64,000 nt of DNA, from positions 22,993-86,992 of IMG/VR virus record IMGVR_UViG_3300032038_000047. One strand, given 5' to 3'. This stretch comes from a virus (taxonomy: Duplodnaviria; Heunggongvirae; Uroviricota; Caudoviricetes). The notes under the pieces were generated by a model that saw only the letters and a program-made list of their open reading frames with translations, was not told the DNA's origin and did not search any database. The translations under genes and the position numbers were made by a program. Each line of letters opens with the position of its first letter. Positions within the stretch are counted from its first letter, which is position 1. Shown here in pieces: positions 14,324 to 30,165 of the stretch.

Positions 14324-14339
14324 GGGATGGTGTTTCAAC

Positions 14340-14827: not shown

Positions 14828-14868
14828 AAGCTCTGGTACAGCTCATAGGTCGGGTTGTAATCGATTGT

Positions 14869-15530: not shown

Positions 15531-15547
15531 TTCAAAATGGGAGGTAA

Positions 15548-17967: not shown

Positions 17968-19038
17968 TCAGACTTCTCCGGATTCTGATTTTTCATCTTT
18001 CAGCAGCTCAGCGAAGTACCGCTCAATTTCTGCATTTACCGCCTCTCTTTTTGCATCTGTGGTATGCTGGTAGATCCGTTTTAGAGTCTGGATCGACGAC
18101 CACCCGCCACGCTCCATGGCGTATTTGTCCGGAGTGCCGAGTTCCAACATGATAGAGGCGTTCTGATGCCGGAGGTCGTGCAAGCGCATATGCGGAAGCC
18201 CCTCCTCTTTACAGATCAGAGTGAGCCGCTTGCTTAGTGTGTTGGCGTGGACGTTGCAGAAAGGGATATTCCGTGTTACACACTCATCCAGTTTCAAAGC
18301 GAGATACGCAGGAACTGGGAGTGTACGCTTGGATTTCCTGGTTTTTGTAGTTTTGACCACAAACTCATGGTTCTCATTTGGGACTTTGGCCTTTGTTACG
18401 TGCAGGAGCTGCTTCTCGGAGTCCCAGTCACTATGCTCTAGCGCCAGTATTTCTGATCTGCGCAGCCCGAGGAACATCGCCAGCAGGACCGGAACCTCGA
18501 TGGATTCCCCATCCACTGCTCTGATCAGTTTTGCGCACTGGTCTTTATCCAGGATATTTCCCTCGAAATCCTCTGCTTGCGGCAGTGTGGCACGGATCTG
18601 GCGGCCACAGAACTGCTTTATTACTGCTGACAGAAGCCCTTTGACATTCGCAACGGTTTTGGGGCCGCTGGTCTTTGCCTCACGATTGATTGCCACCTGG
18701 GCTACATTATCGGTGATATTTCGGAGTTGCATGAGCATTTCCGGCTGCAGGTGGTTTTTCTTGATGTTTTTGTAGCCTCTGATCGTGGATGGGGACAACA
18801 CGTTGCTTTTCATGTTAATATATTTGGTGATGGCTTCTTCCAGAGTCATGGTGGATTGGTCGAGAATGGTTTCATGGTGCCGCTGGGCTAATTCACTGGC
18901 CAGGCGGATGCACTCATATTTATCAGGGCTGGTAACGCTCTGGTAGACGCTCTTTCCATTTTCGTCTTTTCCAAGATACACACGAAGTCTCCAGGTTCCT
19001 GATGGTAGTTGCGTTGGGTTCATGATATCTGCCTCCAT
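17968..19038 (-). CDS. int: Tyrosine-type site-specific integrase
   Basis: C-terminal catalytic region 'HMRLHDLRHQNASIMLELGTP...ERGGWSSIQTL.RIYQHT' carries the R..HxxR..Y signature of tyrosine recombinases. The N-terminal SAM-like/core-binding region is present. Confidence 0.85.
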   Translation of the reverse strand: MEADIMNPTQLPSGTWRLRVYLGKDENGKSVYQSVTSPDKYECIRLASELAQRHHETILDQSTMTLEEAITKYINMKSNVLSPSTIRGYKNIKKNHLQPEMLMQLRNITDNVAQVAINREAKTSGPKTVANVKGLLSAVIKQFCGRQIRATLPQAEDFEGNILDKDQCAKLIRAVDGESIEVPVLLAMFLGLRRSEILALEHSDWDSEKQLLHVTKAKVPNENHEFVVKTTKTRKSKRTLPVPAYLALKLDECVTRNIPFCNVHANTLSKRLTLICKEEGLPHMRLHDLRHQNASIMLELGTPDKYAMERGGWSSIQTLKRIYQHTTDAKREAVNAEIERYFAELLKDEKSESGEV

Positions 19039-19217
19039 TCAGATGTAGAATGTCTCCGATTGTATCATAAGCCCTCCGTGTTTGAAAGGACAGAACCAAT
19101 CTATTTTGTGACGACGGAACAATCTGTGCGCATGTTGTTCCAATAGTAATTGCCGTGCGCAGGTGTCCGGTTCTTATGGTATATTCTCTACATCTTAATA
19201 TTTTGGAGGTATAGAGA

Positions 19218-19463
19218 ATGCCAAAACTAAAAAAGTCGCCAACAGAACTGGCGAACACATACTTGCTGACGGCCATCGGTTCGTCAGCTATTTTTTATGC
19301 TAATTCGCCCCTGCAGCAGGCAAGAATTGTTGGCTTGTCCCGGGCCAGCTGGTATCGCCGGCTGAAAGCACCGGGAACCTTTACTGTTGATGAACTCCGA
19401 AAGCTTGCCAGGCACTATCGCTGGGATAACGACACCCTGCTGAAGATTGTGGGGTGGCAGTGA
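19218..19463 (+). CDS. Small HTH DNA-binding protein, excisionase or Cro-like candidate
   Basis: 81 aa. 'ARIVGLSRASWYRRLK' is an HTH-like segment. It is the first + strand gene after int. Confidence 0.4.
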   Translation: MPKLKKSPTELANTYLLTAIGSSAIFYANSPLQQARIVGLSRASWYRRLKAPGTFTVDELRKLARHYRWDNDTLLKIVGWQ

Positions 19464-19879
19464 TGGGATATTTGAAAGCAGAACTGTCACTCAAAAGTCC
19501 ATATCACATCACCAAGCATCGGCAGTATGAGCTGATGCACTTTTGTTTGCAGTACCCGGAGTGGAAAGCAGAGTACCATGATATTTATGAGGCGATTGGC
19601 AGCATCCAACGGTCAGAAGTGGCAATTGTCCATGAGAAAGGCAGACCGGTGGAAGATCTGGCTGAGCGGCTGACGGAACTGCGGGCGGCAATGGAGCTGG
19701 TTGAGAAAGCTGCTGACTATGCTGACAGAGAGTTGCGAGAGTTCATTATTCTCGCCGCAACAAAAGACGTGAAATACCCGGCGCTCAGTACTCGCTATGG
19801 GGTGCCCTGCGGAAAGGACCTGTGGTACAGCACATACCGGAAGTTTTTCTGGATACTAAGTCAGATGAAGGGGCTGTGA
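19454..19879 (+). CDS. Hypothetical regulatory protein
   Basis: 141 aa ORF in the lysogeny/early region. A role as an ArpU/RinA-like late regulator is speculative. Confidence 0.35.
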   Translation: MAVMGYLKAELSLKSPYHITKHRQYELMHFCLQYPEWKAEYHDIYEAIGSIQRSEVAIVHEKGRPVEDLAERLTELRAAMELVEKAADYADRELREFIILAATKDVKYPALSTRYGVPCGKDLWYSTYRKFFWILSQMKGL

Positions 19880-19904: not shown

Positions 19905-19932
19905 TCCGCAAAAATTACAAGTTCTATAATGG
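19905..19932 (+). promoter_or_regulatory. Phage-specific promoter motif with a downstream UACG-loop hairpin
   Basis: TCCGCAAAAATTACAAGTTCTATAATGG is followed by GAACC-TACG-GGTTC and TATATATTTTTT at 19932-19957. Confidence 0.5.
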
Positions 19933-20029
19933 AACCTACGGGTTCTATATATTTTTTGCAGGAGGTAACGTTGTGGTCAGCTTGACAAGAAAGGCTGGAA
20001 TCAGTATAGTGAGAAAGGAGGGAGGTGCC

Positions 20030-20184
20030 AAATGAATATGTCGGAAACAGCACGTATCATTATCGGCCTCCGGTCTAAGGGATGGTCTGACACGGAAATT
20101 GCGGACTTCATCCTCTGGGTTGAAACCGGAGATACACAGTATCAGCCAAAGGAACCGCCCGATACTGCCGCAGCAAAAGAATAG
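20030..20184 (+). CDS. Small hypothetical protein (51 aa)
   Basis: ATG at 20030 with GGAGGGAGG RBS. 'ARIIIGLRSKGWSDTEIADFI' resembles a sigma-R4/LuxR-type HTH. A terminator follows at 20196-20235. Confidence 0.4.
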
Positions 20185-20195
20185 TAACAGACACA

Positions 20196-20235
20196 AGACC
20201 GCTCAACCGTAACTGGCTGGGCGGTCTTTTTGCGT
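20196..20235 (+). terminator. Rho-independent terminator
   Basis: AGACCGC...GCGGTCT hairpin followed by TTTTTGCGTTTT. Confidence 0.55.
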
Positions 20236-20254
20236 TTTAAGGAGGTAATTCAAA

Positions 20255-20470
20255 ATGGGAGTAATTAAATTCGCCGATGTGGATAGACGGTTGCTTTTCA
20301 AATACATTATGCATTGTGATAGAAGTATGTACTGGTATGATGGGATTATTCAGAGGCTCATGGAAGGAGTAATCTTTATCCGTGCTCGACGCATTGGCTG
20401 CAAAGGAATAGATGATTGGATCAATATGCAGCCACCTATCTGGGAGAACCCCGGCATGTTCTATCGTTAA
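20255..20470 (+). CDS. Small hypothetical protein
   Basis: 71 aa. The ATG lies inside the conserved AATTCAAAATGGGAG element. Confidence 0.4.
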   Translation: MGVIKFADVDRRLLFKYIMHCDRSMYWYDGIIQRLMEGVIFIRARRIGCKGIDDWINMQPPIWENPGMFYR

Positions 20471-20700
20471 TATAGTATATTTAGCACGGCTTGATCCCAA
20501 ATGATGATCGAGGGAACTGGGCCATAAGTTTGTCTGGTATATGCTTCACGATACTCGCCATATCGTTTTCCGGTTTCTGTAAGCTTCCATCCCGTGCCCT
20601 GTTTCACTATTAATCCAGCTGCCTGCGCACGTTTATTAAAGTCCTGAGCAGACTTATGCATTTGCCTGGCAAGCTCTGATGCTGTTTTACGTTTGCTCAC
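20467..20700 (-). CDS. Small DNA-binding-like protein on the minus strand, repressor candidate
   Basis: 77 aa, basic. It is transcribed divergently from 20782(+), with partial palindromes (ATGTG...CACAT) in the intergenic region. Confidence 0.4.
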   Translation of the reverse strand: MSKRKTASELARQMHKSAQDFNKRAQAAGLIVKQGTGWKLTETGKRYGEYREAYTRQTYGPVPSIIIWDQAVLNILY

Positions 20701-20781
20701 ATTTCATACGTCTCCTGTATGTGTTACTACCATTGTATCACATATGGGAGGCATTTTCAATTTTAAAGGAGGTAATTCAAA

Positions 20782-21015
20782 ATGGGAGGTAAAAACCCGA
20801 TCTACAAATACACCCTGTCGCCATATGACGTAAATGACCACAATGCTCCGGTGGCGCACTACTGTTCCCTGTGCCGGACGCATCATACGATTCCACGGAA
20901 GGACTGGGTGCTGTTGGTTCGGACAAATCGGATCACAAAGCGGCAGGTCCTTCGTCTGGCCTGCAAGAACAGTGTGTGGAAATCCGGATATATTGGAAAG
21001 GAGGCATTGCAATGA
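20782..21015 (+). CDS. Small Cys-rich hypothetical protein
   Basis: 77 aa. The ATG lies inside the AATTCAAAATGGGAGG element. There are several Cys/His residues. Confidence 0.4.
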   Translation: MGGKNPIYKYTLSPYDVNDHNAPVAHYCSLCRTHHTIPRKDWVLLVRTNRITKRQVLRLACKNSVWKSGYIGKEALQ

Positions 21016-21227
21016 ACCTGCTTCAGATAGCGAAACCGGTTGCCGTTGGTCTATGTTTGGCCAGCGGTTTTCTTATGTACCAGTGCGGAAGGGCCGATGC
21101 GGTGGACGGCATGTTCAATATGCAGATGGACGAGGAGGTCACCTTCGTTCGTGAGGATGGCAGTCGTTTCAAACTGAAAGTTGTGGAGGATGATCAGTAT
21201 GAAGATCGTAGTTCGATGCAGGGATGA
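21013..21227 (+). CDS. Small hypothetical protein
   Basis: In-frame ATG with AAAGGAGG RBS. There is an N-terminal hydrophobic segment. Confidence 0.35.
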
Positions 21228-21381
21228 TAGAATGTATAATTTTGTCTTCGCGGAGTGCCAGTATGACGTGCGTCAGCAATCCTGGATCGTACAGGACAGG
21301 GATGGCTCACAACATTATTTTCCGAGTGTAAACGTTGTCCATCTGCAATGCTCCAAAGACGATACTCCCGTTAAGCGGTGA
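21199..21381 (+). CDS. Small hypothetical protein
   Basis: About 60 aa ORF that overlaps the previous gene. Confidence 0.3.
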   Translation: MKIVVRCRDDRMYNFVFAECQYDVRQQSWIVQDRDGSQHYFPSVNVVHLQCSKDDTPVKR

Positions 21382-21386
21382 CTGTG

Positions 21387-21737
21387 ATGGAACGAAGCTA
21401 CACCATATATGAGATTGCCGAGAAGTGCAATGTACACCACAAAACAGTCAATCGGTGGATCAAAACAGGGCTGATGGAGGGATATTTGAAAGGCGGAAAG
21501 TTCCGAGTCCCTCTGTCGGCCTTTTTGCGCTTTCAGGTAGAACACCCTAAGTACAAAACAGAGAACCAGCTGCAGCGAGAGGTATGTTCCGCAGAGCTTG
21601 CCATCTATCAGGAACGGGTATGGGAACTCGCCGACGATATTAAACAGCGGATCGGGGTGCTTTCGGCAGAGCTGACGCAGCTTCAAGATCAGTTGGACCT
21701 GTGTAAAAAGATATTTGAAAGGATTGATCAGATATGA
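21387..21737 (+). CDS. HTH_17/excisionase-family (MerR-like) DNA-binding protein
   Basis: 'YTIYEIAEKCNVHHKTVNRWIKTGLMEGYLKGGKFRV' is a typical excisionase/MerR-type HTH. The C-terminus is a coiled coil. Confidence 0.55.
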   Translation: MERSYTIYEIAEKCNVHHKTVNRWIKTGLMEGYLKGGKFRVPLSAFLRFQVEHPKYKTENQLQREVCSAELAIYQERVWELADDIKQRIGVLSAELTQLQDQLDLCKKIFERIDQI

Positions 21738-22276
21738 CAAAAAACGAACGAATCCATGAATTTGACGTACTGCTTCGGGATGTTCCGAACAGTACCCGGA
21801 TGCGGGATTGGCTGATAGACCACGACTTTTTCAGGGTTCCTGCCAGCAGAAAGTATCATGGTGCCTATGAGGGAGGATTGTTTGACCATTCGTTGCAGGT
21901 GGCGCAGCATCTGATAGCGCTCACGGAAAACAATAACCTTCAGTGGAAGCGTCCGGAATCCCCTGTGCTGGTAGGGATATTCCACGACCTCTGCAAGATC
22001 GACCAGTATATCTGCACCGGGACGGATTACGAGGGGCACAACCAGTATAAGTGGAATGACAACCAGCTCCTCAAAGGCCATGGTGACAAATCTATTATCC
22101 TTCTAAGCCAACTCACGACGCTGACAGAGGAGGAAATCCTGTGCATCCGATACCATATGGGGGCCTTTGTGGAGAAAGAGGAATGGAACGACTACACCAG
22201 AGCCGTGGAGAAGTGTCCGAACGTGCTCTGGACTCATCAGGCGGACATGCTGGCAAGTCATGTTGACGGCGTCTGA
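21734..22276 (+). CDS. HD-domain phosphohydrolase
   Basis: 'HSLQVAQHL...FHDLCKID' contains the H...HD metal-binding motifs. Confidence 0.6.
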   Translation: MTKNERIHEFDVLLRDVPNSTRMRDWLIDHDFFRVPASRKYHGAYEGGLFDHSLQVAQHLIALTENNNLQWKRPESPVLVGIFHDLCKIDQYICTGTDYEGHNQYKWNDNQLLKGHGDKSIILLSQLTTLTEEEILCIRYHMGAFVEKEEWNDYTRAVEKCPNVLWTHQADMLASHVDGV

Positions 22277-22346
22277 TTATATTCAGCAAAAAAAGCAAGT
22301 CCTATAACGGAAGTAATTCCAAGAAATCTGAAAGGAGTTTGATACT

Positions 22347-22790
22347 ATGGAATTTAGAGATCGCATTGATGAGGAATTGGAGCGAGTTTGCAACAAGATG
22401 AAGTCGGCGACCCCTGGCACGGATCAGTACGTACAGCTTCTGACGGAGGTGGAACGGCTCGCCAAGCTGATCGGTAACGAGGACCGACTGGAGTTGGAGA
22501 AGCTGGACAGTCAGGCCAAGCGTGACCTTGATGAGGACAAGCAGCGGCTCGCGGAAGTGGAAAGCGAGCGCAACTATGAACTCGCCAAGGATCAGGCAAA
22601 GGCCGAAGCTGCCACAGCGGCCAACGAACGGGAGGTCACGGACCGGGACAGCAAGCGCGGGATCGTGAAATCTCTGATCGGGGCTGGCGCGATGCTGGCC
22701 ATGGGGGTGCTGACGATCTACAGTGAGGAAAGTCGCATCATCACATCGAAGGCGTGGAGCTTTGTCTCCAAAGTGATGCCTAAGATTTAA
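22347..22790 (+). CDS. Coiled-coil protein with a C-terminal TM segment
   Basis: 147 aa. The N-terminal region is charged and coiled-coil-like. The C-terminus 'LIGAGAMLAMGVLTIY' is hydrophobic. Confidence 0.45.
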   Translation: MEFRDRIDEELERVCNKMKSATPGTDQYVQLLTEVERLAKLIGNEDRLELEKLDSQAKRDLDEDKQRLAEVESERNYELAKDQAKAEAATAANEREVTDRDSKRGIVKSLIGAGAMLAMGVLTIYSEESRIITSKAWSFVSKVMPKI

Positions 22791-22809
22791 GAAAGGAACT
22801 ATTTCGGCG

Positions 22810-22848
22810 GGAGGACCTGTAACAGGGTCCTTTCGCTTTGTCTTTTCA
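22810..22848 (+). terminator. Rho-independent terminator with GTAACAG loop
   Basis: GAGGACCTGTAACAGGGTCCTT followed by a T-rich tail. Confidence 0.55.
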
Positions 22849-22871
22849 CAATTCAAAATGGGAGGTTTTAC

Positions 22872-23034
22872 TATGGGTGTTTTCAAGGATATTATGACTG
22901 ATCTGATGGACCATGAGGACGAGGTTGAGCTTCTCACCGGCGTCATGCCAGAGGATCTTCCGGACTACTTTGACACGAAGGAAATCACAGACCTTTGGCA
23001 GACAATTCAAAAGATTGAGGTGAAACGGTTTTGA
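22872..23034 (+). CDS. Small acidic hypothetical protein (53 aa)
   Basis: ATG 8 nt after the GGGAGG of the AATTCAAAATGGGAGG element. Confidence 0.35.
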
Positions 23035-23615
23035 CGGATGAACGCTTTGTGTATGAGAGTGATATTCGCAGCAAAAAGAACATCGCTCACCAGGCAATCC
23101 ATCGAAAGAACGGCAGCAAGTCCAAGAAATGCACGCTGCCCCATGATGGACTTTCTCAGAAACAGTGGAAGGAGCTGAACGGTCCGGTGCAAACGGTCAA
23201 TCTCAATGCGCCTATCGCATGGAAAGACTTCAAGGCGCTAAGTTCACAGATGCAAGAAAGCTACGTGATGAACCTGATTCGGAAGTATGATATTTCTCAA
23301 GTCGACTTTGCTGAATTAGTAGGGATCAGCGGCCCGGTCGTGAACAAATATTTTAAAGGTAGAAACATCAAATTTGGAAAGGGCAAGAAAGGGCGTTCCA
23401 GGAAGCAGGAGGACGCATGGATTGCGTTTGTCTGTGATATTCCTGAAACAGAGGTTGCAAATAATGAAACTTATGTAAAGCCAACTCCGTGTGAAGTGTC
23501 TCTGGTATTCCGCGGTAAACTCAAGCTGGATGATATTCTCAGCAGTTTGAAAGAGACCTTTGGAGATACGGTGGATGGCTGCATTCGGGTTACTTTTGAA
23601 AAGGAGGGTGCATAG
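23031..23615 (+). CDS. HTH-containing hypothetical protein
   Basis: 194 aa. 'ISQVDFAELVGISGPVVNKYF' is an XRE-like HTH. The start is probably non-ATG (TTG). Confidence 0.4.
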   Translation: MTDERFVYESDIRSKKNIAHQAIHRKNGSKSKKCTLPHDGLSQKQWKELNGPVQTVNLNAPIAWKDFKALSSQMQESYVMNLIRKYDISQVDFAELVGISGPVVNKYFKGRNIKFGKGKKGRSRKQEDAWIAFVCDIPETEVANNETYVKPTPCEVSLVFRGKLKLDDILSSLKETFGDTVDGCIRVTFEKEGA

Positions 23616-24607
23616 TGGGAAAAGATTCAAGTTATATTTGGGATCCGGAAAGACTAAGATTTCTGCTTGGTCAGGCCGGCATTTCGGGGGCAGAGCTCGG
23701 CAAGCAATGTGACCTTTCTAGCAAGTCTGTAGCCGACTATCTGTCCGGTGCCAGTGTGCCCGGCCTCCAAAACCTGATCAGGATCGCCGATTATTTCTGT
23801 GTACCGGTGGATTATCTGATCGGGAGGGTATCTTATTACGACGCCAAGGCTATTCAGAAGGATTTTCGGTGCAGTTATATGCGCCTTAGGCATGCCGCGT
23901 ACGAAAAATATATTCGGAGCAGCCACAGTAACCAACGGCCAATCGACCCGAATGACGATATTCTCCCAGTGTGGCCCTACAATCTGGTGGATGAGATATT
24001 CAAAGAGCCTACCGAGGACGTTCTCAATGACGATCAGTTGGTGGGGCTTCAGAACGCCCTTGATACGCTGACTGACCGCGAGCGGGAGGTTGTGCATTTA
24101 TATTATAAGAACGGGCTTACCCTTCGGCAGGTTGGTGAAATAGAGTCAGTAGGCCCTGCGCGAATCCGCCAGATCCTTGCCAAGTCTCTTCGAAAACTTC
24201 GGCATCCCAGCAGAGCAAATCAGATCCGGCTCGGTGCAGAGTTGGCAAAGAAAGAATCCTTTGTAAAAACCAAAGAGGCGGAACTGGAGGCGCGGCTGAA
24301 AGTAGTTGCAGAGCATGAGGAATCCTTAAAAGCTGTAAAAGACCCTAGTATGCCAACTAAGCGCACGATATCGCTGGTTGACCTGGATTTGTCAGTTCGG
24401 TCCTACAATTGTCTGGCTCGTGGCAGAATCAATACTTTATCGGAACTGATGGACGCTGCAGAGGCTGGCGAACTGGCAAACATCCGTAATCTTGGCAAGA
24501 AGTCAATTCTGGAGATCTGCAACAAAATCTACAGCCTGGCAGGAGTCTCTTATCATGAACGGTATGGTCTTGCTGTCCCGGAGTTAGTTAAAAAGGAGAA
24601 AGCGTAG
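23615..24607 (+). CDS. Fusion protein: XRE-type HTH + sigma-70 region 4 + RNA polymerase alpha-subunit C-terminal domain
   Basis: N-terminus 'LGQAGISGAELGKQCDLSSKSVADYLSG...LIRIADYFCVPVDYLIG' is XRE HTH. The middle 'LTDREREVVHLYYKNGLTLRQVGEIESVGPARIRQILAKSLRKLRHPSR' is sigma-70 region 4.2 (compare 'RIRQIEAKALRKLRHPSR'). The C-terminus 'LDLSVRSYNCLARGRINTLSELM...IRNLGKKSILEI' is alpha-CTD-like (compare 'LELTVRSANCLKAE...NLGKKSLTEI'). Confidence 0.75.
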   Translation: MGKDSSYIWDPERLRFLLGQAGISGAELGKQCDLSSKSVADYLSGASVPGLQNLIRIADYFCVPVDYLIGRVSYYDAKAIQKDFRCSYMRLRHAAYEKYIRSSHSNQRPIDPNDDILPVWPYNLVDEIFKEPTEDVLNDDQLVGLQNALDTLTDREREVVHLYYKNGLTLRQVGEIESVGPARIRQILAKSLRKLRHPSRANQIRLGAELAKKESFVKTKEAELEARLKVVAEHEESLKAVKDPSMPTKRTISLVDLDLSVRSYNCLARGRINTLSELMDAAEAGELANIRNLGKKSILEICNKIYSLAGVSYHERYGLAVPELVKKEKA

Positions 24608-24746
24608 TGGGAAAAGATATTAAGCTGTCGCCAAAGTATGCTTACGAGCTGCTGGAGCAGGTTACAAGGGATTGGTGATATTTTTTCCGCAAAATTAACA
24701 ACCTCTGTAATAGGAGAAATCCAATACTTTATGGAGGTACAAGATT

Positions 24747-24953
24747 ATGACTGGAAGAGTGATATTTAGCGTGGTTTGCCTGGGCATTAGCGTGTTTTCC
24801 ATCGGAGTATCTGCTGGAGCGACGATTCAGCAGCGGCTCGATCGGAAGAGCTACGATGGCCTGTTGGACAACCTGGGCTATGATGTTCACCACATCGGCA
24901 ATCAGGTGGTTGCCATGAGGAAAGGATTTTCAAAGAAAGGATTGGGCCTGTAA
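24747..24953 (+). CDS. Small membrane protein
   Basis: 68 aa with an N-terminal TM helix. It has its own upstream promoter motif (24686-24713) and a downstream terminator. Confidence 0.45.
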   Translation: MTGRVIFSVVCLGISVFSIGVSAGATIQQRLDRKSYDGLLDNLGYDVHHIGNQVVAMRKGFSKKGLGL

Positions 24954-24970
24954 CAGGGCCCTTTCTTTTT
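24944..24970 (+). terminator. Rho-independent terminator with GTAACAG loop
   Basis: GGGCCTGTAACAGGGCCC followed by TTTCTTTTT. Confidence 0.6.
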
Positions 24971-25003
24971 GTCCATCCGCAATTTTTACAACTCCTATAA
25001 TGA

Positions 25004-25135
25004 GGGAAGTGGAATTCGCTGAGTTATGTCGGCGGCCGGTGAAAGTCGGTAACCACATCAATAGTTCAATGGTAGAACACTCCAGTATGGAGAGACGCTC
25101 GTTCGAAGCGAGCAACCCTTATTTTTTTTGCTGGC
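25004..25135 (+). ncRNA. Candidate small RNA (about 125 nt) between a promoter and a terminator, with tRNA-like D-arm and T-arm segments
   Basis: It follows the promoter motif at 24976-25003. It contains AGTTCAATGGTAGAAC (a D-arm-like GG loop) and GCTCG-TTCGAAG-CGAGC (T-arm-like) followed by CCCTTATTTTTTTT. No acceptor pairing was found. The only ORF is 8 codons. Confidence 0.35.
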
Positions 25136-25197
25136 AGGATTGACAGGTATTCTCATATGTGATATTATTGCTCCACTTTTTGGTGAGGAGTGTTAAC

Positions 25198-25401
25198 ATG
25201 CCGAAATGTGAGATGTGCGGACAGTATTTCAATCTGGAAAAAGCGAAAAAAGAGTTTAATCACTATTTCAGCGAGAGTTCTCAGTGGAAGTACGAGTGGG
25301 TAATTAAGAAAGTTTTATGCGACGAATGTGCAATTGGTGACGCAAGTTTACGATGGATGGAAGGAACGCTTGTGGATGAATTTGAGGGAACATACGACTA
25401 A
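25198..25401 (+). CDS. Small zinc-ribbon-like protein
   Basis: 'MPKCEMCGQYF...CDECA' gives CxxC...CxxC. The RBS is GGTGAGGAG. Confidence 0.45.
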   Translation: MPKCEMCGQYFNLEKAKKEFNHYFSESSQWKYEWVIKKVLCDECAIGDASLRWMEGTLVDEFEGTYD

Positions 25402-25510
25402 TACTCCGAGTAGGTAAGAGGCTCCTTATGGGGTCTCTTTTTTTTCAGCAAATTTTACAGCAGCTATAATGGCAATAAATGCTAATTCTATATTCTAGGA
25501 GGAACGTATT

Positions 25511-25777
25511 ATGCGGAGATCAAGTGAACAGAAGAACGACCTGATGTGGAATCTGGTAGTGAGTCATGCTTATCGGATTGAGGCAAAAAAGCGTGAGCTG
25601 GAGAAGATTGGAGGAACCGAATCGACGATTGCAGGAGCGCTGGACATGTCGACAATGGAGTTGAGATGGTGGCATGCCGTTTATGTTACAAATCGGGTTG
25701 AGCAGAAAGAAATGGAGCTTATGCATAAGCGAGAATTGGAGAAAGAAGACGCATTTGAGGAGAAGCAGGGCTCTTAA
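25511..25777 (+). CDS. Small hypothetical protein
   Basis: 88 aa with an upstream promoter motif (25446-25472), AGGAGG RBS and a downstream terminator (25768-25797). Confidence 0.45.
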   Translation: MRRSSEQKNDLMWNLVVSHAYRIEAKKRELEKIGGTESTIAGALDMSTMELRWWHAVYVTNRVEQKEMELMHKRELEKEDAFEEKQGS

Positions 25778-25865
25778 CAGGGCCCTTTTCTTTTGTATCG
25801 TTATATTCCGCAATTTTTACAGGGTATATGATGGAGAATCTCAAAAATTTTTAGGAGGTTATATT

Positions 25866-26009
25866 ATGGGATGCATTATTAAGTACATTGGCATTGGAGC
25901 GTGTATTGGCGTCGGGTATCTGGCGGCCTGCACGGCGATGATGCCCGTTATGCAGAAGATGACGTACCGGATGACAATGAAGAATATTGAGAGGATGTGC
26001 AAGGATTAG
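25866..26009 (+). CDS. 47-aa membrane peptide
   Basis: ATG with AGGAGG RBS. It follows the promoter motif at 25806. The sequence is hydrophobic ('CIIKYIGIGACIGVGYLAACTAMMPV'). A terminator lies at 26008-26036. Confidence 0.4.
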   Translation: MGCIIKYIGIGACIGVGYLAACTAMMPVMQKMTYRMTMKNIERMCKD

Positions 26010-26122
26010 AGCCTGTAACAGGGCTCTTTCCTTTTCTACAGTGTTTTTCCGCAAATTTTGCAAGGTGTAAGATGGAAGGATTATTCACAAAAGAAACTGA
26101 AATTCTGAAAGGAGCAATTATT

Positions 26123-26284
26123 ATGCTGAACAAGATTGGTAACCTGAAGGATAAGATCTGGGTTGAGATGACTGCCCGGAAGCTGGAGAAGGAAGCCAAG
26201 CCAAAGAAGAGCATGGATGAGATCCTGAGAGAGAAACAGGAGGACATGATGTGGGCGATCCATGGACCGAACGCGGGGGCTTAA
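26123..26284 (+). CDS. Small hypothetical protein (53 aa)
   Basis: AAAGGAGCA RBS. It lies between the promoter motif at 26048 and the terminator at 26274-26303. Confidence 0.4.
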   Translation: MLNKIGNLKDKIWVEMTARKLEKEAKPKKSMDEILREKQEDMMWAIHGPNAGA

Positions 26285-26374
26285 CAGCTCCCCATTCTTT
26301 TTCACAACCGTTATATTTTTTCAGCAAGAATTACAGCGACAATAATGGAACAAAACTTAAAGGAGGAATTTGTA

Positions 26375-26533
26375 ATGGATGAACTGTTGAGCTTTGATGC
26401 CCTGCAGTGGCTGATGTCGGTTGGTTACGGTCAGAAGACGCATGAGGAGCGTATGGTGCTCATCAAGGCGGCTAAGATCGCTTACCCGAATGATAACGAG
26501 CAGGACGCAATTGACTTCGACAAAAGGGTCTGA
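26375..26533 (+). CDS. Small hypothetical protein (52 aa)
   Basis: AGGAGG RBS, downstream of the promoter motif at 26321. Confidence 0.4.
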   Translation: MDELLSFDALQWLMSVGYGQKTHEERMVLIKAAKIAYPNDNEQDAIDFDKRV

Positions 26534-26550
26534 CAAGGCCCTCCTTTTTT

Positions 26551-26943
26551 TTGTCTATGCGATATTTCTATGAGCCACCGCCGATCACCGTTCCCATGTA
26601 CGGACAGGTCCACTGCTGCAATCATCCGCTCTACACCTACTGCACGTTATATTTGGAAGGCGGTATTGGGCTTGCCGTGATCCAGCAGCGGTTTGACTCG
26701 GTCACAAAGCACTTCTGGTGGGGACCGATCGACGAGTGCCTGGCCAATGATATTTACTTGTCTCCAAACTTTCCGGAGTACTTTCATAGTCATGCCGCCA
26801 AGCCAACGGACGCCGGATTATATTTTACGGTTCCGGTCCGTTCTCTGATGTGGGCCCTCAGGATGAAGCCACTTCGGAAAGAGCCGTGGGAGCAGTTTTC
26901 CGCAGAATTAACAGCTCCTAAAATGGAAGGTATTACACTGTGA
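26551..26943 (+). CDS. Hypothetical protein
   Basis: 130 aa ORF. Confidence 0.4.
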   Translation: MSMRYFYEPPPITVPMYGQVHCCNHPLYTYCTLYLEGGIGLAVIQQRFDSVTKHFWWGPIDECLANDIYLSPNFPEYFHSHAAKPTDAGLYFTVPVRSLMWALRMKPLRKEPWEQFSAELTAPKMEGITL

Positions 26944-26964
26944 TATTTTGGAAGGAGCGATTGT

Positions 26965-27131
26965 ATGATTAAATTACTGGACAAGACGCTGTGGCTGATT
27001 GCGTACATCATTACTCTGCCGCTGAACATCGCGTTCGCGCTGGTGGATCTGTTGGTGGAGGTGACATTCGTACTGGCCGACTTCGTCCGAAACGCTATTA
27101 GGAACAAGCGGTTCAAACAAGTACACAAATA
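26965..27131 (+). CDS. 55-aa membrane peptide
   Basis: The start sits in a TGATATTTTGGAAGGAG-type junction (TGATATTTTGGAAGGAGCGATTGT-ATG). It is hydrophobic ('LWLIAYIITLPLNIAFALVDLLV'). A terminator lies at 27145-27176. Confidence 0.4.
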
Positions 27132-27261
27132 GATACCGGAGAACAGAGGGGGCTCTTAACAGGGCCTCTCTTTTTATTATGTCAACCAATCCGCAAAAAT
27201 TACAAGTACTATAATGGAACCTACGGGTTCTGATATTTTTCTTTTGAAAGGAGATTTCGCC

Positions 27262-28167
27262 ATGAATCCTGGAACATTCCTGAAAGTGCATTCACCAGTG
27301 TTGCTGGCGGGTGCGGCAATTGTGCTGATCGTCGGCGTGGTTGCCAGTGCGATTGCGACAGCACCGAAAGCAGCGGAAGAAGTCAAGGATATTCAGGAGA
27401 AAGCTAAGCATGTGAATCCTGAAAATTCCTCGGGGGAAGATTCCGAGGAAACCACCGTAGAAGAGGCCATTAACAGAGTCTCTTCTAATTTGCCCGAGCC
27501 TGCACAAATGGTGCTGAAGCGGATCCGCGGCCTCACCGTTGTTCAGAATCTGCGGTATCCGGAGTACCGAACGTTATATTTTGATGCGGCAAAAGTCCTT
27601 GGAAAGCGGTACCTGCCAACGCTTGTTATGGCTGCTGGGGCGGTTGCTTGCGTGATATTCTCGCAAAAGGCCTCGGCAGTGAAGTACGCGGCGGCAATGG
27701 GCATGCTGTCTACCACAGCGGGACGGTATGACAGAATACGGGATAAGATCCGCAAAGTGCTCGGTGAAGAGGAAGCGGTGGGTCTGGACCGTGATATTTT
27801 GAAAGAGGAGGCCAGTGAGAAGTTCAGTGATTCAGACATGACGCTGGCCTGTGGAGAGATTGAGGACACTGGTGATGGTGATATTCTGTTTTGGGAGCCG
27901 ATTACCGGGAAGTACTTCTATTCGTCAACACGAGCGCTGCAGGATGCGCTCACCAAGGCCAGCCGCATCCGGGAACGAAAAGATATTTCCTTCAATAAAC
28001 TTCTGGCGCTTATGGGGTTGGAAGGTATTCCGAACGGCAACGAACTCGGATGGAAAAAGGGCCAGAGCCTGATAGACTTCTGGTTCCACAACAATGACAT
28101 TGAGGTCGACGACGATACCAGGCCTTTGACAATTATCGACTGGATCACCAGCCCAACCTATATTTAA
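27262..28167 (+). CDS. Membrane-anchored protein, member 1 of a family of four paralogs
   Basis: N-terminal TM (VLLAGAAIVLIVGVVASAIA), an acidic linker, and a C-terminal conserved block 'ILFWEPITGKYFYSSTRALQDAL'. It is preceded by the promoter motif at 27190. Confidence 0.55.
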   Translation: MNPGTFLKVHSPVLLAGAAIVLIVGVVASAIATAPKAAEEVKDIQEKAKHVNPENSSGEDSEETTVEEAINRVSSNLPEPAQMVLKRIRGLTVVQNLRYPEYRTLYFDAAKVLGKRYLPTLVMAAGAVACVIFSQKASAVKYAAAMGMLSTTAGRYDRIRDKIRKVLGEEEAVGLDRDILKEEASEKFSDSDMTLACGEIEDTGDGDILFWEPITGKYFYSSTRALQDALTKASRIRERKDISFNKLLALMGLEGIPNGNELGWKKGQSLIDFWFHNNDIEVDDDTRPLTIIDWITSPTYI

Positions 28168-28183
28168 GAAAGGACAATCGCAA

Positions 28184-29158
28184 ATGGACGTAAAGACGAT
28201 CGCCAAGACGGTCAGCAGCATTTGTGTCAAGAACGGCCCTTCGATTCTCACGGGATTCGGAGTGGCCTTCTTTCTTGGCGCTACCGTTGCGGCTGCCGTC
28301 GTGTCACCTAAAGTGGTAAAACGGGTGAAAGCGGCAAAAGAACAGAAGAAGAAACGCCTCCAGAACGAGCAGGATGATATTTTGGAGGAAGACGAGGAAC
28401 AGGATGCCAAAGAAGAGAGAATCTATCGGGACGTGTACGAAGGCATGACCATGAAACAGGCCGGTGAAAAGTACGAGCTGACGCTGGCTGAGGTCCGTGA
28501 TATTTACAGAGCAAAGAAAAAGGCGCATAAGGCCCGGGGACGGAAACCGGGCGACCTGACTGTCTGGGAGAATATTAAGATTGCAGCGCCGTTATTTGCT
28601 CCGGCTGCACTGATGATCATCTGTGGGCTGATCTGTGTGGTCATGGCCAACAAGCTGCATATTGACAGAACCATGGCTGCCGTTGCCGCCTGTGAGCTGT
28701 CGGGGAACGCCCTGAAAGAGTATCAGGACAAAACTGCTGAGAAATTTGGAGAAAAAGCTGACAAGGAGATCAAGGAAGAGGTCGCAAAGGACCAGATCCG
28801 GAAGAATCCTCCTGAGAATAATACCGTGATATTTACTGGAAACGGAGAGTACCTATGCTATGAGCCAATCTCCAGGCAGTACATTCGATCCAGTTCCACT
28901 GCGGTAAAGGAAGCGATATTTAAGATCAGGGACGCATTGGCAGACGACGGCTGGTGCTCGGTCAATGACTACCTTGGATGGCTGAATGCGGAAGAGATGC
29001 CATACGGAGATGATATTGGCTGGTCAGCATTTGAGCCATGTGAGACAAAGGTGGAGGACAACTTCATCTACGACAGGGCCAAACCGGACGATGATACGCC
29101 GTGTCTGATCATTCAGCTCTATCCTCAGCCAAAGCACCGGTATGAGGGCAAACGGTAA
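28184..29158 (+). CDS. Membrane-anchored protein, paralog 2
   Basis: N-terminal TM plus C-terminal 'YLCYEPISRQYIRSSSTAVKEAI', which resembles the blocks in the 27262 and 46593 products. Confidence 0.55.
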   Translation: MDVKTIAKTVSSICVKNGPSILTGFGVAFFLGATVAAAVVSPKVVKRVKAAKEQKKKRLQNEQDDILEEDEEQDAKEERIYRDVYEGMTMKQAGEKYELTLAEVRDIYRAKKKAHKARGRKPGDLTVWENIKIAAPLFAPAALMIICGLICVVMANKLHIDRTMAAVAACELSGNALKEYQDKTAEKFGEKADKEIKEEVAKDQIRKNPPENNTVIFTGNGEYLCYEPISRQYIRSSSTAVKEAIFKIRDALADDGWCSVNDYLGWLNAEEMPYGDDIGWSAFEPCETKVEDNFIYDRAKPDDDTPCLIIQLYPQPKHRYEGKR

Positions 29159-29185
29159 CGTGATATTTGGAAAGGGGAGAGGAAC

Positions 29186-29548
29186 GTGTCTGATAACGTT
29201 GCGTTCAAGATGTCTTACAAGAATCCGAGAAATGGCGTGACCTATGTGTCATTTGGCTGCAGAGACAATGCAGTCAAAGCTGTACGTGATATTCTGGCGA
29301 GGACTCCACTTCCATACTTCGACACGCTCCTCTCCTTCCTCCGGCAGGCCAGTGTCGGAGATTCCGTTGAGATGCGTGATATTCGTATGGAGTGCGTTCC
29401 GGTATCAGAGGACGGCATCATAGCAGTGGATACGGTCATTGAGTATTACGACACGGAGGAACGCTATGAGAACTGCACGGTACAGATCCTGAGAAACAGC
29501 CACACCGGAGAGGAGTCTATTGGCTGGTGGGAGAACACAGACGAGTGA
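29186..29548 (+). CDS. Hypothetical protein
   Basis: 120 aa with a GTG start and GGGGAGAGG RBS. Confidence 0.4.
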   Translation: MSDNVAFKMSYKNPRNGVTYVSFGCRDNAVKAVRDILARTPLPYFDTLLSFLRQASVGDSVEMRDIRMECVPVSEDGIIAVDTVIEYYDTEERYENCTVQILRNSHTGEESIGWWENTDE

Positions 29549-29610
29549 ATCCGCAAAAATTACAAGTTCTATAATGGAACCTACGGGTTCTGTATATTTT
29601 TTCTGAAAGG

Positions 29611-30165
29611 ATGATGGCCATGAAGATCAGTATTAGAGGTGCGGTAAAAACTGCCCTCGCCGTTTACGGAGGCTACAAGCTTCTGGAACCGACCATCGAA
29701 CGGGCTGGAAAAGTGCTGGAGGGATATTTCGAGGACCGGGTGCTTCCTGATCTGAAGCGGAAACTGTCAGCTAAGATCCAGTACCTGATCTTTGGTGATA
29801 TTCCGGAGCGGGCTTCTGTGAAACGGCCTAAGGTAAGCTATGCGAAGTATGTGAAGTGCGATCGTCCGTCTGAGGATAGGGCGCAAACAGACTATTCTCA
29901 GTACGCAATGAAACGGCGTGCAGATATTCTGTATTCTTCCCGCAAAGAGGCGGAAGACGTTCGGGATGAGTTGGAGAAGCTAGCGTCAGATTATGGCATC
30001 GTTACCCTGAATGACGTAAGAAAACTTAGCGGTCTAGAAACCAAGTATGCTGATAGTAATTGGGGATGGGAAGATTGTGACCCTTACGAATGGGACATTT
30101 GCCCGTCTTACATTGATCGAAGCAGTTTCATCATCGACTTTCCGCCGATTGAGCGGTTGAACTAA
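29611..30165 (+). CDS. Hypothetical protein
   Basis: 184 aa. It follows the promoter motif at 29550 and its hairpin. The start could instead be at 29620. Confidence 0.45.
   Translation: MMAMKISIRGAVKTALAVYGGYKLLEPTIERAGKVLEGYFEDRVLPDLKRKLSAKIQYLIFGDIPERASVKRPKVSYAKYVKCDRPSEDRAQTDYSQYAMKRRADILYSSRKEAEDVRDELEKLASDYGIVTLNDVRKLSGLETKYADSNWGWEDCDPYEWDICPSYIDRSSFIIDFPPIERLN

Follow-up and report, generated by a model that had tools for sequence, protein, structure and literature searches.

A single gene in the DNA analysed here, a stretch of 64,000 nucleotides from a Caudoviricetes virus (the window), encodes a 330-aa protein that carries, from the N- to the C-terminus, a Cro/C1-type (XRE) helix-turn-helix (HTH), a helix resembling the flap tip of RNA polymerase, a σ region 4, a helical spacer and a module resembling the C-terminal domain (CTD) of the polymerase α subunit. 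This three-module phage protein is real and no frameshift artefact, because region 4 and the α CTD share one chain in at least 150 clusters at 50% identity, which match aa 119-310 with E<1e-24; independent assemblies also show this continuous architecture, at identities as low as about 30%. Judging from these sequences, the family is large, widespread among phages and undescribed. Regarding its function, the reading put forward here, tentatively and at somewhat less than an even chance, is that the protein is an RNA-polymerase-independent, DNA-binding mimic of the part of the polymerase that reads the upstream promoter.

The features of the locus are collected in Table 1. The open reading frame was re-derived with the same coordinates, strand and length as in the original prediction, and the strings quoted there are all found in the translation (RIRQILAKSLRKLRHPSR at aa 183-200, LSVRSYNCL at aa 259-267 and NLGKKSILEI at aa 292-301). 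The stop codon of an upstream 194-aa ORF overlaps the start of the gene in the sequence TAGTG, and a 100% identical copy of the protein (P0001) is encoded on an 87-kb contig. All three proposed modules score above the curated Pfam cut-offs (HTH_3, Sigma70_r4 and RNA_pol_A_CTD), and the AlphaFold2 model (mean pLDDT 86.9) superposes on XRE HTH domains, σA region 4 and α CTDs in Foldseek searches. The absence of σ regions 1-3 and of the α N-terminal domain had likewise been claimed, and Pfam searches for Sigma70_r2, Sigma70_r3 and the α N-terminal domain families returned none of them at E<=1. Within NCBIfam, the rpoA equivalog models reach only aa 220-311, with 38-56 bits against cut-offs of 228-523, and the sigma70-ECF model TIGR02937, although above its threshold (51.8 bits against 42.9), covers aa 96-197 only, at profile positions 78-163 of 165. 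Having neither σ region 2 nor the α N-terminal domain, the protein is neither a σ factor nor an α subunit. Relatives bear automatic names such as 'sigma-70 family sigma factor' (e.g. P0033) or 'alpha C-terminal domain-containing protein', the first of which is a misnomer, given that region 2 is absent.

Table 1. Features of the 330-aa protein gene and its surroundings, in window coordinates
Feature	Position	Strand	Details
194-aa ORF upstream, weak HTH, probable partner	23031..23615	+	HTH_3 20.5 bits, below cut-off
Exchanged cassette: partner 3' end, whole 330-aa gene, downstream intergenic	23458..24735	.	
Ribosome-binding site AGGAGG	23602..23607	+	8 nt 5' of GTG start
Gene of the 330-aa protein	23615..24607	+	GTG start; ORF and translation, Pfam/NCBIfam/PHROGs matches
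Cro/C1-type (XRE) HTH	23648..23830	+	aa 12-72; HTH_3 and Foldseek
Family motif VWPYNLVDEIFKEP, flap-tip-helix-like	23969..24010	+	aa 119-132; model helix 122-129
σ70 region 4 (4.1 and 4.2)	24029..24229	+	aa 139-205; nearest to housekeeping σA
Single long charged helix, spacer or possible coiled coil	24236..24337	+	aa 208-241; AlphaFold2 model
RNA polymerase α CTD-like module	24350..24541	+	aa 246-309

The arrangement had been described as unfamiliar, and it remains so: literature searches brought up no characterised factor like it, and no deposited phage covers 80% or more of the protein. Searches of the 50,697 INPHARED records with tblastn gave partial matches only, to single domains (region 4, α CTD or HTH), and megablast of window positions 20000-30000 against the same collection gave no match. 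The BFVD fold search with the model of the protein also returned only partial matches to single domains.

Region 4 is matched by Sigma70_r4 over the whole profile (positions 1-50 of 50, aa 148-197) with 52.7 bits against a cut-off of 24.1, whereas the LuxR/GerE-type HTH that could have been mistaken for it reaches only 15.3 bits on the same residues (GerE, cut-off 23.5). The best PDB sequence match of this middle domain is σA domain 4 (4g6d_A, 6.8e-11), with 3n97_A also among the matches, and the corresponding block of the model superposes on σA region 4 with an rmsd of 1.7-2.0 A over 61-69 residues at 42-51% identity (Foldseek). The equivalents of R586, R588, Q589, K593, R596, R599 and R603 are kept, while P and A stand in the places of R584 and E585. 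In E. coli, R584, E585, R588 and Q589 are the region 4.2 residues that read TTGACA; with two of these base-reading residues missing from the recognition helix, the sequence preference of the protein should differ from TTGACA. Conservation was counted over 165 retrieved family proteins, among which the GPAR of the 330-aa protein is unique. Most members have TRER, hence R-E-R at the equivalents of R584, E585 and R586, and the R586 and Q589 equivalents are invariant. The recognition helix RIRQILAKSLRKLRH is unchanged in the 55%-identical allele of a sister phage (L002).

The α CTD module is matched by RNA_pol_A_CTD (63.5 bits vs a cut-off of 23.8, aa 246-305), its top PDB sequence matches are RpoA chains of Firmicutes (8i23_A and 7l7b_A, 2e-10), and the C-terminal block of the model superposes on 7vpd_S at 2.1 A over 60 residues with 47% identity (Foldseek). 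It keeps the equivalents of the residues that bind UP-element DNA, namely R265, N268, C269, G296, K298 and S299. Throughout the family, 164 of the 165 proteins have R at the R265 position (H stands there in the relative P0004), the counterparts of N268 and G296 do not vary, and that of S299 is conserved in at least 90%. The spacer that joins this module to region 4 varies between about 35 and 90 aa across homologues, and in two relatives (P0121 and P0183) the α CTD is repeated as a free-standing module.

The segment that precedes region 4 belongs to the conserved core, which comprises about 190 aa and consists of the flap-like helix, σ region 4, the helical spacer and the α CTD. This core starts with a P-Y-N-L-L-x-x-I-F-G-E helix that resembles the β flap-tip sequence LLxAIFGEK, the hydrophobic register of the motif matching the L-L-x-x-I-F-G-E of the flap tip. 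In the family alignment P121 and N123 are invariant and L124 is almost so, the pattern N-L-[LVI]-x-x-[IVL]-[FLY] is present in 133 of the 165 proteins, and the gap between the motif and the recognition helix of region 4.2 is nearly constant (median 58 aa, range 54-76). The motif opens the minimal proteins of about 190 aa, and in one relative (P0172) it stands ahead of each of three region-4-like units. In E. coli the flap-tip segment is RpoB 896-910 (TPEEKLLRAIFGEKA), the piece that has been joined to σ region 4 in the chimeras 3t72, 6ido and 7kuf, and its Bacillus counterpart is AEERLLHAIFGEKA. The resemblance rests on an 8-residue pattern and has no statistical support as homology, because a profile of the motif failed to retrieve RpoB from the PDB sequences and found only a thiolase (E=1.2). 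In the model the helix has a pLDDT of 94 inside a poorly predicted linker, and of 75-90 after removal of the N-terminal domain. We infer that the helix may dock in cis on the flap-binding surface of region 4, in which case it would occupy the surface by which σ region 4 binds RNA polymerase. The presence of this conserved segment directly before region 4 weakens the idea of a detachable σ subunit or appropriator, which had been raised in the original prediction.

A close structural parallel is provided by the engineered chimeras of region 4 and the flap tip (PDB 3T72, 6IDO, 7KUF and related entries), on which region 4 of the model superposes at 1.7-2.3 A (Foldseek). In both cases region 4 and an L-L-x-x-I-F-G-E helix share one chain, and in the chimeras this yields a stable region 4 whose DNA binding does not require the polymerase. 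The phage arrangement is natural, however, its helix lies N-terminal rather than C-terminal to region 4, the similarity is limited to a short pattern, and the chain adds an α CTD and an XRE HTH. Another parallel is the holoenzyme-promoter complex, in which the same two domains are found with the same DNA-contact residues and with a contact pair of a 261-type acidic residue and an R603-type arginine. There, two polymerase-anchored subunits contribute the domains, whereas in the phage protein both are tethered by a helix of 35-90 aa. In the ternary crystal complex 3N97, the α CTD and σ region 4 are neighbours on DNA that carries an UP element and a -35.

According to the tentative proposal of a DNA-binding mimic, one chain would reproduce those holoenzyme parts by which the DNA upstream of the -10 element is read. 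The flap-like helix, docked in cis, would keep region 4 folded and competent for DNA binding without the polymerase, and the long helical spacer would tether the α CTD, which keeps the residues for the minor groove of A/T-rich UP-element DNA. The protein would bind autonomously at sites made of a -35 hexamer plus an A/T tract, and not as a subunit of RNA polymerase, and its effect there on σA-type promoters may be competition, repression or modulation. The XRE HTH would contribute an additional, allele-specific contact, with either DNA or a partner. Since Sigma70_r2, Sigma70_r3 and the α N-terminal domain are missing, the protein has no means of assembling into the polymerase, and the family-wide conservation of DNA-contact residues is counted in favour of DNA binding.

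It is also possible, though on balance doubtful, that gut-Firmicute phages encode a self-contained replica in which a flap-tip mimic is clamped in cis on a captured σA region 4, with a tethered α CTD. Away from the polymerase, such a replica would block '-35 plus UP' DNA, so that strong promoters of the host, or early ones of the phage, would be shut off at the level of DNA; alternatively, it might impersonate the surfaces of the polymerase towards regulators.

A related explanation dispenses with DNA altogether and treats the protein as a decoy at the protein level, with free copies of region 4 (including its flap helix) and the α CTD soaking up proteins for which these surfaces of the polymerase are the normal target. 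Activators or stress regulators of the host that contact the α CTD or region 4, take-over proteins of rival phages that bind region 4, and α CTD-modifying enzymes have been considered as its ligands, and transcription would be reprogrammed or protected without the protein contacting DNA. We regard this as unlikely, although several observations are consistent with it. Both modules are nearest to housekeeping versions (the σA domain 4 of 4g6d and Firmicute RpoA) and not to specialised paralogues, and the equivalents of K593, R596, R599 and R603 are kept together with the acidic '261 determinant', all of which are known contact points for regulators. The conserved residues of region 4 and the α CTD could be maintained because proteins, and not DNA, recognise them, and the rapid replacement of the allele in a conserved phage backbone fits an arms-race interface. 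Phage proteins that target σA region 4 do exist, as exemplified by gp67 (ORF67) of Staphylococcus phage G1 (PDB 4G6D; PMC3694059), whose complex with this region is the top PDB match of the middle domain. Both this factor and the 330-aa protein belong to the interface of region 4, the α CTD and the UP element, but gp67 is a ligand of the host region 4, whereas the 330-aa protein is a copy of region 4 and the α CTD. A decoy, however, has no obvious need for DNA-contact residues, yet the equivalents of R265, G296, K298 and S299 are conserved, and it leaves the XRE HTH without an obvious use. Furthermore, the gene belongs to early lytic operons and lies outside the set of prophage-expressed genes, so that a role in superinfection exclusion is less likely.

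The N-terminal HTH brings in a different alternative. HTH_3 matches aa 17-68 with 26.3 bits (cut-off 23), the N-terminal block of the model superposes on the HTH domains of P22 C2 and DdrO and on 3op9 (Foldseek), and the N-terminal part matches the repressor and regulator families phrog_8 and phrog_4 in PHROGs, together with a weak match to RstR-type repressors in NCBIfam. The protein could therefore belong to an ordinary regulator cassette, in which the XRE HTH reads a few allele-specific operators, the 194-aa partner modulates it (as in a repressor/antirepressor or immunity-type pair), and region 4 and the α CTD are generic extras for DNA binding or oligomerisation with no polymerase mimicry. 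These N-terminal matches speak for such a cassette, as do the overlapping start and stop codons of the gene pair and the fact that the exchange took the 330-aa gene together with the downstream intergenic DNA and the 3' end of its partner as a single cassette, as happens with immunity regions. Compared with L002, the DNA of the window is 96-100% identical as far as about position 23400, 45-70% within 23458-24735 and about 90% from 24736 onwards. At the protein level neighbours are 86-99% identical (background about 93%), the partner 77% and the 330-aa protein 55%, with the final ~50 codons of the partner diverging along with the 330-aa gene. Such an exchange of an entire gene for a 55% allele, in a phage that is otherwise nearly the same, counts against the mimic reading, as it would suit a conflict or immunity module better than a factor for conserved host promoters. 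The order of the partner and the 330-aa gene is kept in L001 and L002, and from this gene organisation the 194-aa protein is probably made together with the 330-aa protein and probably binds it.

Nevertheless, an ordinary cassette is in our judgement improbable, because the family core does without the XRE HTH. Relatives of about 190 aa with only the two other domains are numerous, and one form of the family has a Lar-type zinc ribbon in place of the HTH. Conservation is strongest in region 4, the flap-like motif and the α CTD, and not in the recognition helix of the HTH; in addition, the 194-aa partner is not kept beside family members at other loci. On this comparison of sequences the XRE HTH is an accessory module outside the conserved core. 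In the loci examined, the phages are temperate and siphovirus-like, and the family genes always lie among those for early functions and replication. The phage of the window is also temperate and is of a gut type, and the 330-aa gene, which begins 4.6 kb into the rightward early genes, is expressed early, as judged from its genomic position. A lysogeny repressor was considered and rejected, given that the gene lies in rightward early operons and not beside the integrase; in another phage (L085) a separate CI-like HTH_3 repressor is divergently encoded beside the integrase, and the family member lies among the replication genes. A scan of species-representative genomes with the pattern AK[AS][VL]RKLRHP was swamped by host rpoD genes.

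The remaining alternative concerns a repeated promoter element that lacks a -35, of which the original prediction had counted at least 18 copies and which it had named as an obvious candidate target of the protein. The element itself is real, with 13 matches in the window to TCCGCAAAAATTACAA at up to 3 mismatches against 0.68 expected, but the copies number 17 rather than 18, each consisting of the element followed by N4, a TATAAT-like hexamer and GG, and all being intergenic and on the + strand. If TATAAT is set at -12 to -7, TCCGCAA occupies -32 to -26. Two groups of bases in the element do not vary, GCA and CA, which lie 9 bp apart; on the bottom strand they read as two TTG triplets flanking an A/T tract. 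Canonical TTGACA-17-TATAAT promoters are also present in the window (16799, 19982 and 25140). The element was also considered as the promoter of the YonO-like polymerase of the phage and set aside as unlikely: it contains the TATAAT hexamer, it drives the gene of that polymerase as well as early and replication genes, and it is missing from positions 1-16,000, where the genes for tail and lysis and their neighbours lie.

On the basis of this promoter class, it has been proposed that the 330-aa protein, with the help of its α CTD and XRE HTH, directs the host polymerase to the 17 TATAAT promoters that have TCCGCAA-A/T-TACAA in place of a -35, either because its region 4 replaces that of σA on the β flap or because its flap-like helix captures the host region 4 in trans. 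The layout of these promoters resembles that of T4 middle promoters, in which a -10 is combined with a box that takes the place of the -35 and has its centre near -30 (PMC6755090). AsiA and MotA of T4 thus illustrate a phage strategy at the same step, that of region 4, the flap and the -35, and the repeated promoters here also swap the -35; the T4 proteins have, however, no relationship in sequence or fold to the 330-aa protein, and AsiA remodels the host region 4, while the 330-aa protein brings its own. Appropriation is further favoured by the TTG triplets on the bottom strand of the element, given that the R588 and Q589 equivalents are kept (R584 and E585 are not), by the identity of the recognition helix in the L002 allele, and by the canonical promoters, from which an unmodified host polymerase could express the gene first.

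Despite this, appropriation is very unlikely, since each of the two, promoter class and protein family, occurs without the other. In other phages, eight loci with family members show 0-1 matches to the generalised promoter pattern, and scans of other family loci for exact 10-mer repeats revealed no comparable multi-copy promoter; most members have the -35-reading residues of σA but no such promoters. Conversely, this generalised pattern, with 16 copies in the window, 10 in L002, 10 in L168 and 9 in L169 (all on the + strand), occurs in two related phages, L168 and L169, in whose sampled 20 kb tblastn (E<=1) found no homologue of the 330-aa protein; tblastn found none in L170 either. In L002 the element is unchanged even though the 330-aa gene has been swapped for the 55% allele. 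The co-occurrence of factor and promoter class that characterises T4-type systems is therefore not seen across these phages. In addition, the flap-like helix, if docked in cis, would block the flap-binding surface, and the putative TTG half-sites are oriented opposite to a -35. Another element, present in 5 copies, was noticed in one phage (L003), where it lies within a divergent block of small genes.

The promoter class is found, instead, together with a gene pair beside the integrase, encoding an 81-aa HTH protein and a 141-aa protein (phrog_11237). Both are 94-98% conserved where the element is unchanged, and in L168 the 141-aa homologue is 49% identical and the 5' half of the element becomes TTTCGCAA. 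From these comparisons the 81-aa and 141-aa pair would be the better candidates for reading the 17 promoters, and the question of what reads them shifts to this pair.

Other small phage regulators are also distinct. Minimal single-HTH phage σ factors and late activators of the RinA/ArpU type, which are region-4-like proteins from phages of Gram-positive bacteria, are likewise small proteins with a region 4-type HTH (PMC7824862; see also PMC3152322). Unlike the 330-aa protein, they lack an α CTD and the flap-like motif. The late activators are encoded directly upstream of terminase genes, whereas the family studied here is found among early and replication genes, and a PHROGs search with the 330-aa protein (E<=0.1) retrieved no family named RinA or ArpU.

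The σ region 4, the flap-tip helix and the α CTD form a hub at which most bacterial activators and many phage take-over proteins control initiation. The phage factors known so far bind or remodel these elements; carrying copies of its own, with the DNA-contact residues intact, would be something different, namely mimicry of the promoter-reading head of the polymerase. If the cis stabilisation is true, nature would have reached the trick by which structural biologists obtained an autonomous region 4, and such proteins would provide compact, polymerase-independent '-35/UP readers' for promoter studies or synthetic regulators. The replica, if true, would open a new class among phage take-over factors, one assembled from parts of three different polymerase subunits.

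The target gene has an AGGAGG ribosome-binding site 8 nt 5' of its GTG start, which overlaps the stop of the upstream 194-aa ORF (TAGTG). According to Pfam, its product carries three domains, each above the curated cut-off: HTH_3 (aa 17-68, 26.3 bits against 23), Sigma70_r4 (aa 148-197, 52.7 bits against 24.1, full profile) and RNA_pol_A_CTD (aa 246-305, 63.5 bits against 23.8). The GerE profile, with 15.3 bits, misses its threshold of 23.5, and the LuxR/GerE alternative for the middle block thus leaves the region 4 call standing. In searches of PDB sequences, the middle block is nearest to region 4 of housekeeping σA (4g6d_A, 6.8e-11) and the C-terminal block to Firmicute RpoA C-terminal domains (8i23_A and 7l7b_A, ~2e-10). 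The AlphaFold2 model (mean pLDDT 86.9, input of 38 homologues) is superposed by Foldseek on σA region 4 (1.7-2.0 Å, 42-51% identity), on the α C-terminal domain 7vpd_S (2.1 Å) and, in its N-terminal part, on the XRE HTH domains of P22 C2 and DdrO. The three modules of the original prediction are thus borne out, and so is the claimed absence of assembly domains: profile searches found neither σ region 2 nor 3, nor an α N-terminal domain, and the protein therefore cannot work as a σ factor or assemble as an α subunit. It belongs neither to the σ factors (region 2 is absent) nor to the α subunits (the N-terminal domain is absent), and equally falls outside the LuxR/GerE regulators and the CI-type lysogeny repressors.

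An identical protein is present on an 87-kb contig, and relatives with the same continuous three-domain architecture, down to ~30% identity, come from independent ENA, Logan, NCBI and JGI assemblies, which argues against an artificial fusion by frameshift or sequencing error. With aa 112-330 as query, an exhaustive HMMER search yielded 53 cluster representatives at E<=1e-30 (clusters at 50% identity), the best 150 all lying below ~1e-24, and nearly all listed representatives align over one continuous stretch from region 4 to the α C-terminal domain. Both 330-aa and 190-aa forms occur on IMG/VR viral contigs. The arrangement had been proposed as unfamiliar among characterised factors, in agreement with a literature search that found no description of it and with 50,697 deposited phage records, in none of which does an encoded protein span 80% or more of the target. 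Relatives are automatically labelled as 'sigma-70 family RNA polymerase sigma factor', 'DNA-directed RNA polymerase subunit alpha C-terminal domain-containing protein' or 'transcriptional regulator with XRE-family HTH domain'.

Alignments of 38 three-domain and 25 shorter members define a conserved core that runs from a motif through σ region 4 and a charged helix of 35-90 aa to the α C-terminal domain. Although the three predicted modules are all real in the target, they are not the family core, to which the XRE HTH is accessory and an N-terminal motif has to be added. This motif, P-[WY]-P-Y-N-L-[LVI]-[DE]-x-[IV]-[FL]-(G/K)-E-P, spans aa 119-132 of the target (VWPYNLVDEIFKEP), with P121 and N123 invariant. 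The 190-aa proteins start at this motif, and the XRE HTH is one among several N-terminal accessories, being replaced by a Lar-type zinc ribbon in some relatives (P0070, P0102). Among 165 retrieved proteins with signatures of both region 4.2 and the α C-terminal domain, 133 carry the motif at a near-constant distance from the downstream region 4.2 helix, with a median of 58 aa and a range of 54-76. In one relative of 543 aa (P0172), three region-4-like units, each preceded by the motif, are combined with two α C-terminal domains. Among other related proteins, P0183 (435 aa) has four α C-terminal domain repeats and nothing more recognisable, and P0121 (1003 aa) combines helical domains, repeated in its N-terminal part, with a single region 4 and about six α C-terminal domain repeats.

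The family motif (consensus N-L-[L/V/I]-x-x-I-F-G-E; for example PYNLLDDIFGKP, PYNLVDAIFGEP and PDNLLYDIFGGE) shares the register L-L-x-x-I-F-G-E with the β flap-tip helix (TPEEKLLRAIFGEKA in E. coli RpoB 896-910, AEERLLHAIFGEKA in Bacillus and Staphylococcus), a likeness that consists of a short pattern; searching PDB sequences with a motif profile did not bring up RpoB. We take the flap-tip contact residues L901, L902, I905 and F906 to be L124, V125, I128 and F129 of the target. In the holoenzyme, the flap-tip helix is bound by σ region 4 (PMC6755090), and exactly the RpoB 896-910 piece is fused to region 4 in PDB entries 3t72, 6ido ('beta-flap-tip-helix') and 7kuf. In the AlphaFold2 model, helix 122-129 has a pLDDT of 94, against 62-68 for the flanking 20 residues, and a second model, built from the chain minus its first 104 residues, still gives 75-90 for the blocks over this helix. 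From the shared register and the confidence in both models we therefore infer that the helix would occupy, in cis, the groove of region 4 that takes the flap tip, an arrangement like that of the engineered chimeras.

Residue functions in the α C-terminal domain and region 4.2 are those described in E. coli. The equivalent of α R265 is R in 164 of the 165 proteins, those of N268 and G296 are invariant, that of S299 is at least 90% conserved, and those of C269 and K298 are present in the target. In region 4.2, the equivalents of σ R586 and Q589 are invariant in the family and those of K593, R596 and R599 at least 90% conserved, as is that of R603 among the ten closest relatives and the shorter members. 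The R584-E585-R586 equivalents read R-E-R in most members (TRER in 89/165). The target, which reads G-P-A-R here, unique among the 165, lacks the R584 and E585 equivalents and retains those of R588 and Q589; it should therefore not share the preference of host σA for TTGACA.

The window is a temperate siphovirus-like phage with nearly all genes on the + strand (see the table). The target is part of the second early operon, where it follows genes for an HD-domain, a 147-aa, a 58-aa and the 194-aa HTH protein. Early and replication genes of temperate phages also surround the other family members, which do not adjoin terminase genes, and in one of these phages (L085) a separate CI-like repressor adjoins the integrase. 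We read the 909-aa protein, which matches no PDB sequence, as a probable YonO-like single-chain two-barrel DNA-dependent RNA polymerase. HTH_23/HTH_7-like segments lie at aa 87-120 and a further HTH at aa 886-909. Its gene is the last before the contig end, which is also the window end, so that it may transcribe late genes. The 1.1-kb non-coding stretch between this gene and the next (63660) holds the CTATTGATATTTG array, which is iteron-like and might serve as origin, packaging site or late control region.

Features of the window and their positions
Feature	Position	Strand	Details
Tape measure	14-3631		
Dit	3722-5122		
Major tail protein	7099-7851		
Endolysin	11336-12886		
Canonical-type σA promoter	16799-16827	+	near-perfect; TTGACA-17-TATAAT
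Repeated promoter (starts)	17325, 17427, 19905, 22283 (weak), 24686, 24976, 25445, 25807, 26048, 26321, 26899, 27190, 29550, 40184, 46279, 48532, 58921	+	~40 nt each
tRNA	17354-17416	+	63 nt; 52 bits (Rfam)
Integrase	17968-19038	-	
σA-like promoter of 81-aa/141-aa pair	~19140-19195		TTGCCG...TGgTATATT
Small early genes	from ~19200		
81-aa Xre-like HTH protein	19218-19463	+	right after integrase
141-aa protein	19454-19879	+	PHROG 11237 (phrog_11237); no Pfam domain
Short hairpin ATGGAACCTACGGGTTCTAT	19929-19948, 27215-27232, 29574-29593	+	then ATATTTTTT
Canonical-type σA promoter	19982-20010	+	near-perfect; TTGACA-17-TATAGT
Target gene	23615-24607	+	330 aa; GTG start
Canonical-type σA promoter	25140-25168	+	near-perfect; TTGACA-17-TG-TATTAT
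Four DUF6353 / PHROG 2152 paralogues	27214-28167, 28184-29158, 46593-47396, 50099-51277	+	
Primase-polymerase	52854-57044		
Helicase	57685-58917		
909-aa protein	59834-62563	+	PHROG 4291 'RNA-dependent RNA polymerase', E=0
CTATTGATATTTG array	62637-63132	+	six copies, 0-2 mismatches; spacings 74, 142, 89, 88, 90 bp

The promoter-like element lacking a -35 that had been described in the window is real, but counts 17 copies rather than at least 18, all on the + strand. It is a block of ~30 bp, TCCGCAA-(A/T)4-5-TACAA-N4-cTATAATGGaA, with invariant GCA and CA 9 bp apart. With TATAAT set at -12 to -7, the upstream block falls at -32 to -17, and no TTGACA occurs at the usual 17-bp spacing. Many copies lie directly 3' of hairpin-plus-T-run terminators and 40-70 nt 5' of a ribosome-binding site; there is none at 1-16,000, where the tail and lysis genes and their neighbours are. 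Since canonical promoters stand among those without a -35 (the one at 19982 forms a tandem with copy 19905), expression could plausibly pass in a cascade from host-only promoters to factor-dependent ones. The three ATGGAACCTACGGGTTCTAT hairpins, directly 3' of repeated promoters, look like leader terminators or attenuators within ~35 nt of the start, which hints at antitermination control. The tRNA, missed by ARAGORN, begins a few nt after the -10 of copy 17325, with a hairpin and T-run behind it, and two of the DUF6353 paralogues lie directly 3' of consensus copies.

The original prediction cast the target as candidate reader of this element, an idea that three comparisons speak against: an allele swap with the element unchanged, the family without the promoter and the promoter without the family. 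In the sister phage L002 the element is identical, whereas the target is only 55% and its 194-aa partner 77% identical, against 86-99% for neighbouring proteins. At the DNA level, identity is 45-70% over 23458-24735, down from 96-100%, and is back at ~90% from 24736, so the exchanged cassette comprises the 3' end of the partner gene, the target gene and the spacer that follows it. The divergence of the target is spread across all domains; the region 4 recognition helix is identical in both alleles. One generalised pattern, run on both strands, counts 16 promoters in the window, 4 in L001, 10 in L002, 10 in L168 and 9 in L169, all +, but 0-1 on the + strand and none on the - strand in each of eight other phages with family members (L003, L004, L005, L006, L017, L084, L085 and L086). 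L168 and L169 are 20-kb loci from 61-85-kb contigs, found via homologues of the 141-aa protein adjoining the integrase, and tblastn (E<=1) detects no target homologue in them. The promoter class of the window, L001, L002, L168 and L169 co-occurs with the 81-aa/141-aa pair, not with the target. Homologues of the pair hold the same position in L168-L170, and the two proteins are the best candidates for the reader. In L168 the 5' half of the element is TTTCGCAA and the 141-aa homologue is 49% identical, co-variation of the kind that would be expected of a specificity factor. Because the recognition helix is shared by the two alleles, a small chance is left that the target binds the element. At 1086-3358 of L003, a phage with a 36%-identical family member, a different ~56-nt element (A-run ... 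GGGACAAA-N9-GCGTCCCGGTCTATAGCGG on the gene strand) occurs in five copies upstream of small divergent genes on the - strand.

The reading we tentatively prefer is that the target is an RNA-polymerase-independent DNA-binding protein that reproduces the upstream reader of the holoenzyme. With region 4, stabilised by its own flap-like helix, and the α C-terminal domain on a long tether, the protein would recognise a hexamer beside an A/T-rich minor groove and act as a competitor or modulator at σA-type promoters early in infection; in the window phage, the XRE HTH and the 194-aa partner may add allele-specific control. The data establish the domains, the conserved DNA-contact residues, the lack of assembly domains, the early location of the gene and the exchange of the cassette; cis docking of the flap-like helix, DNA binding and the regulatory outcome are inferred. 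The same two modules could instead form a protein-level decoy for regulators or phage factors aimed at region 4 or the α C-terminal domain, which we consider unlikely. Similarly small is the chance of an ordinary XRE-driven regulator/partner cassette; the joint exchange of partner and target speaks for it, the accessory status of the XRE HTH against it. Appropriation, with the target acting at the repeated promoter, is improbable in view of the allele swap and the distribution of the promoter, the identical recognition helices notwithstanding.

Mechanistically, the nearest parallels to the DNA-binding reading are the engineered region 4/flap-tip chimeras and the pair of α C-terminal domain and region 4 on UP/-35 DNA. 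Among phage strategies, T4 AsiA/MotA and G1 gp67 come closest and address the same hub, yet they are ligands, whereas the target is a copy. That it represents a new class of polymerase mimic is rather doubtful; we rate it as a phage transcription regulator built of polymerase-derived DNA-binding modules.
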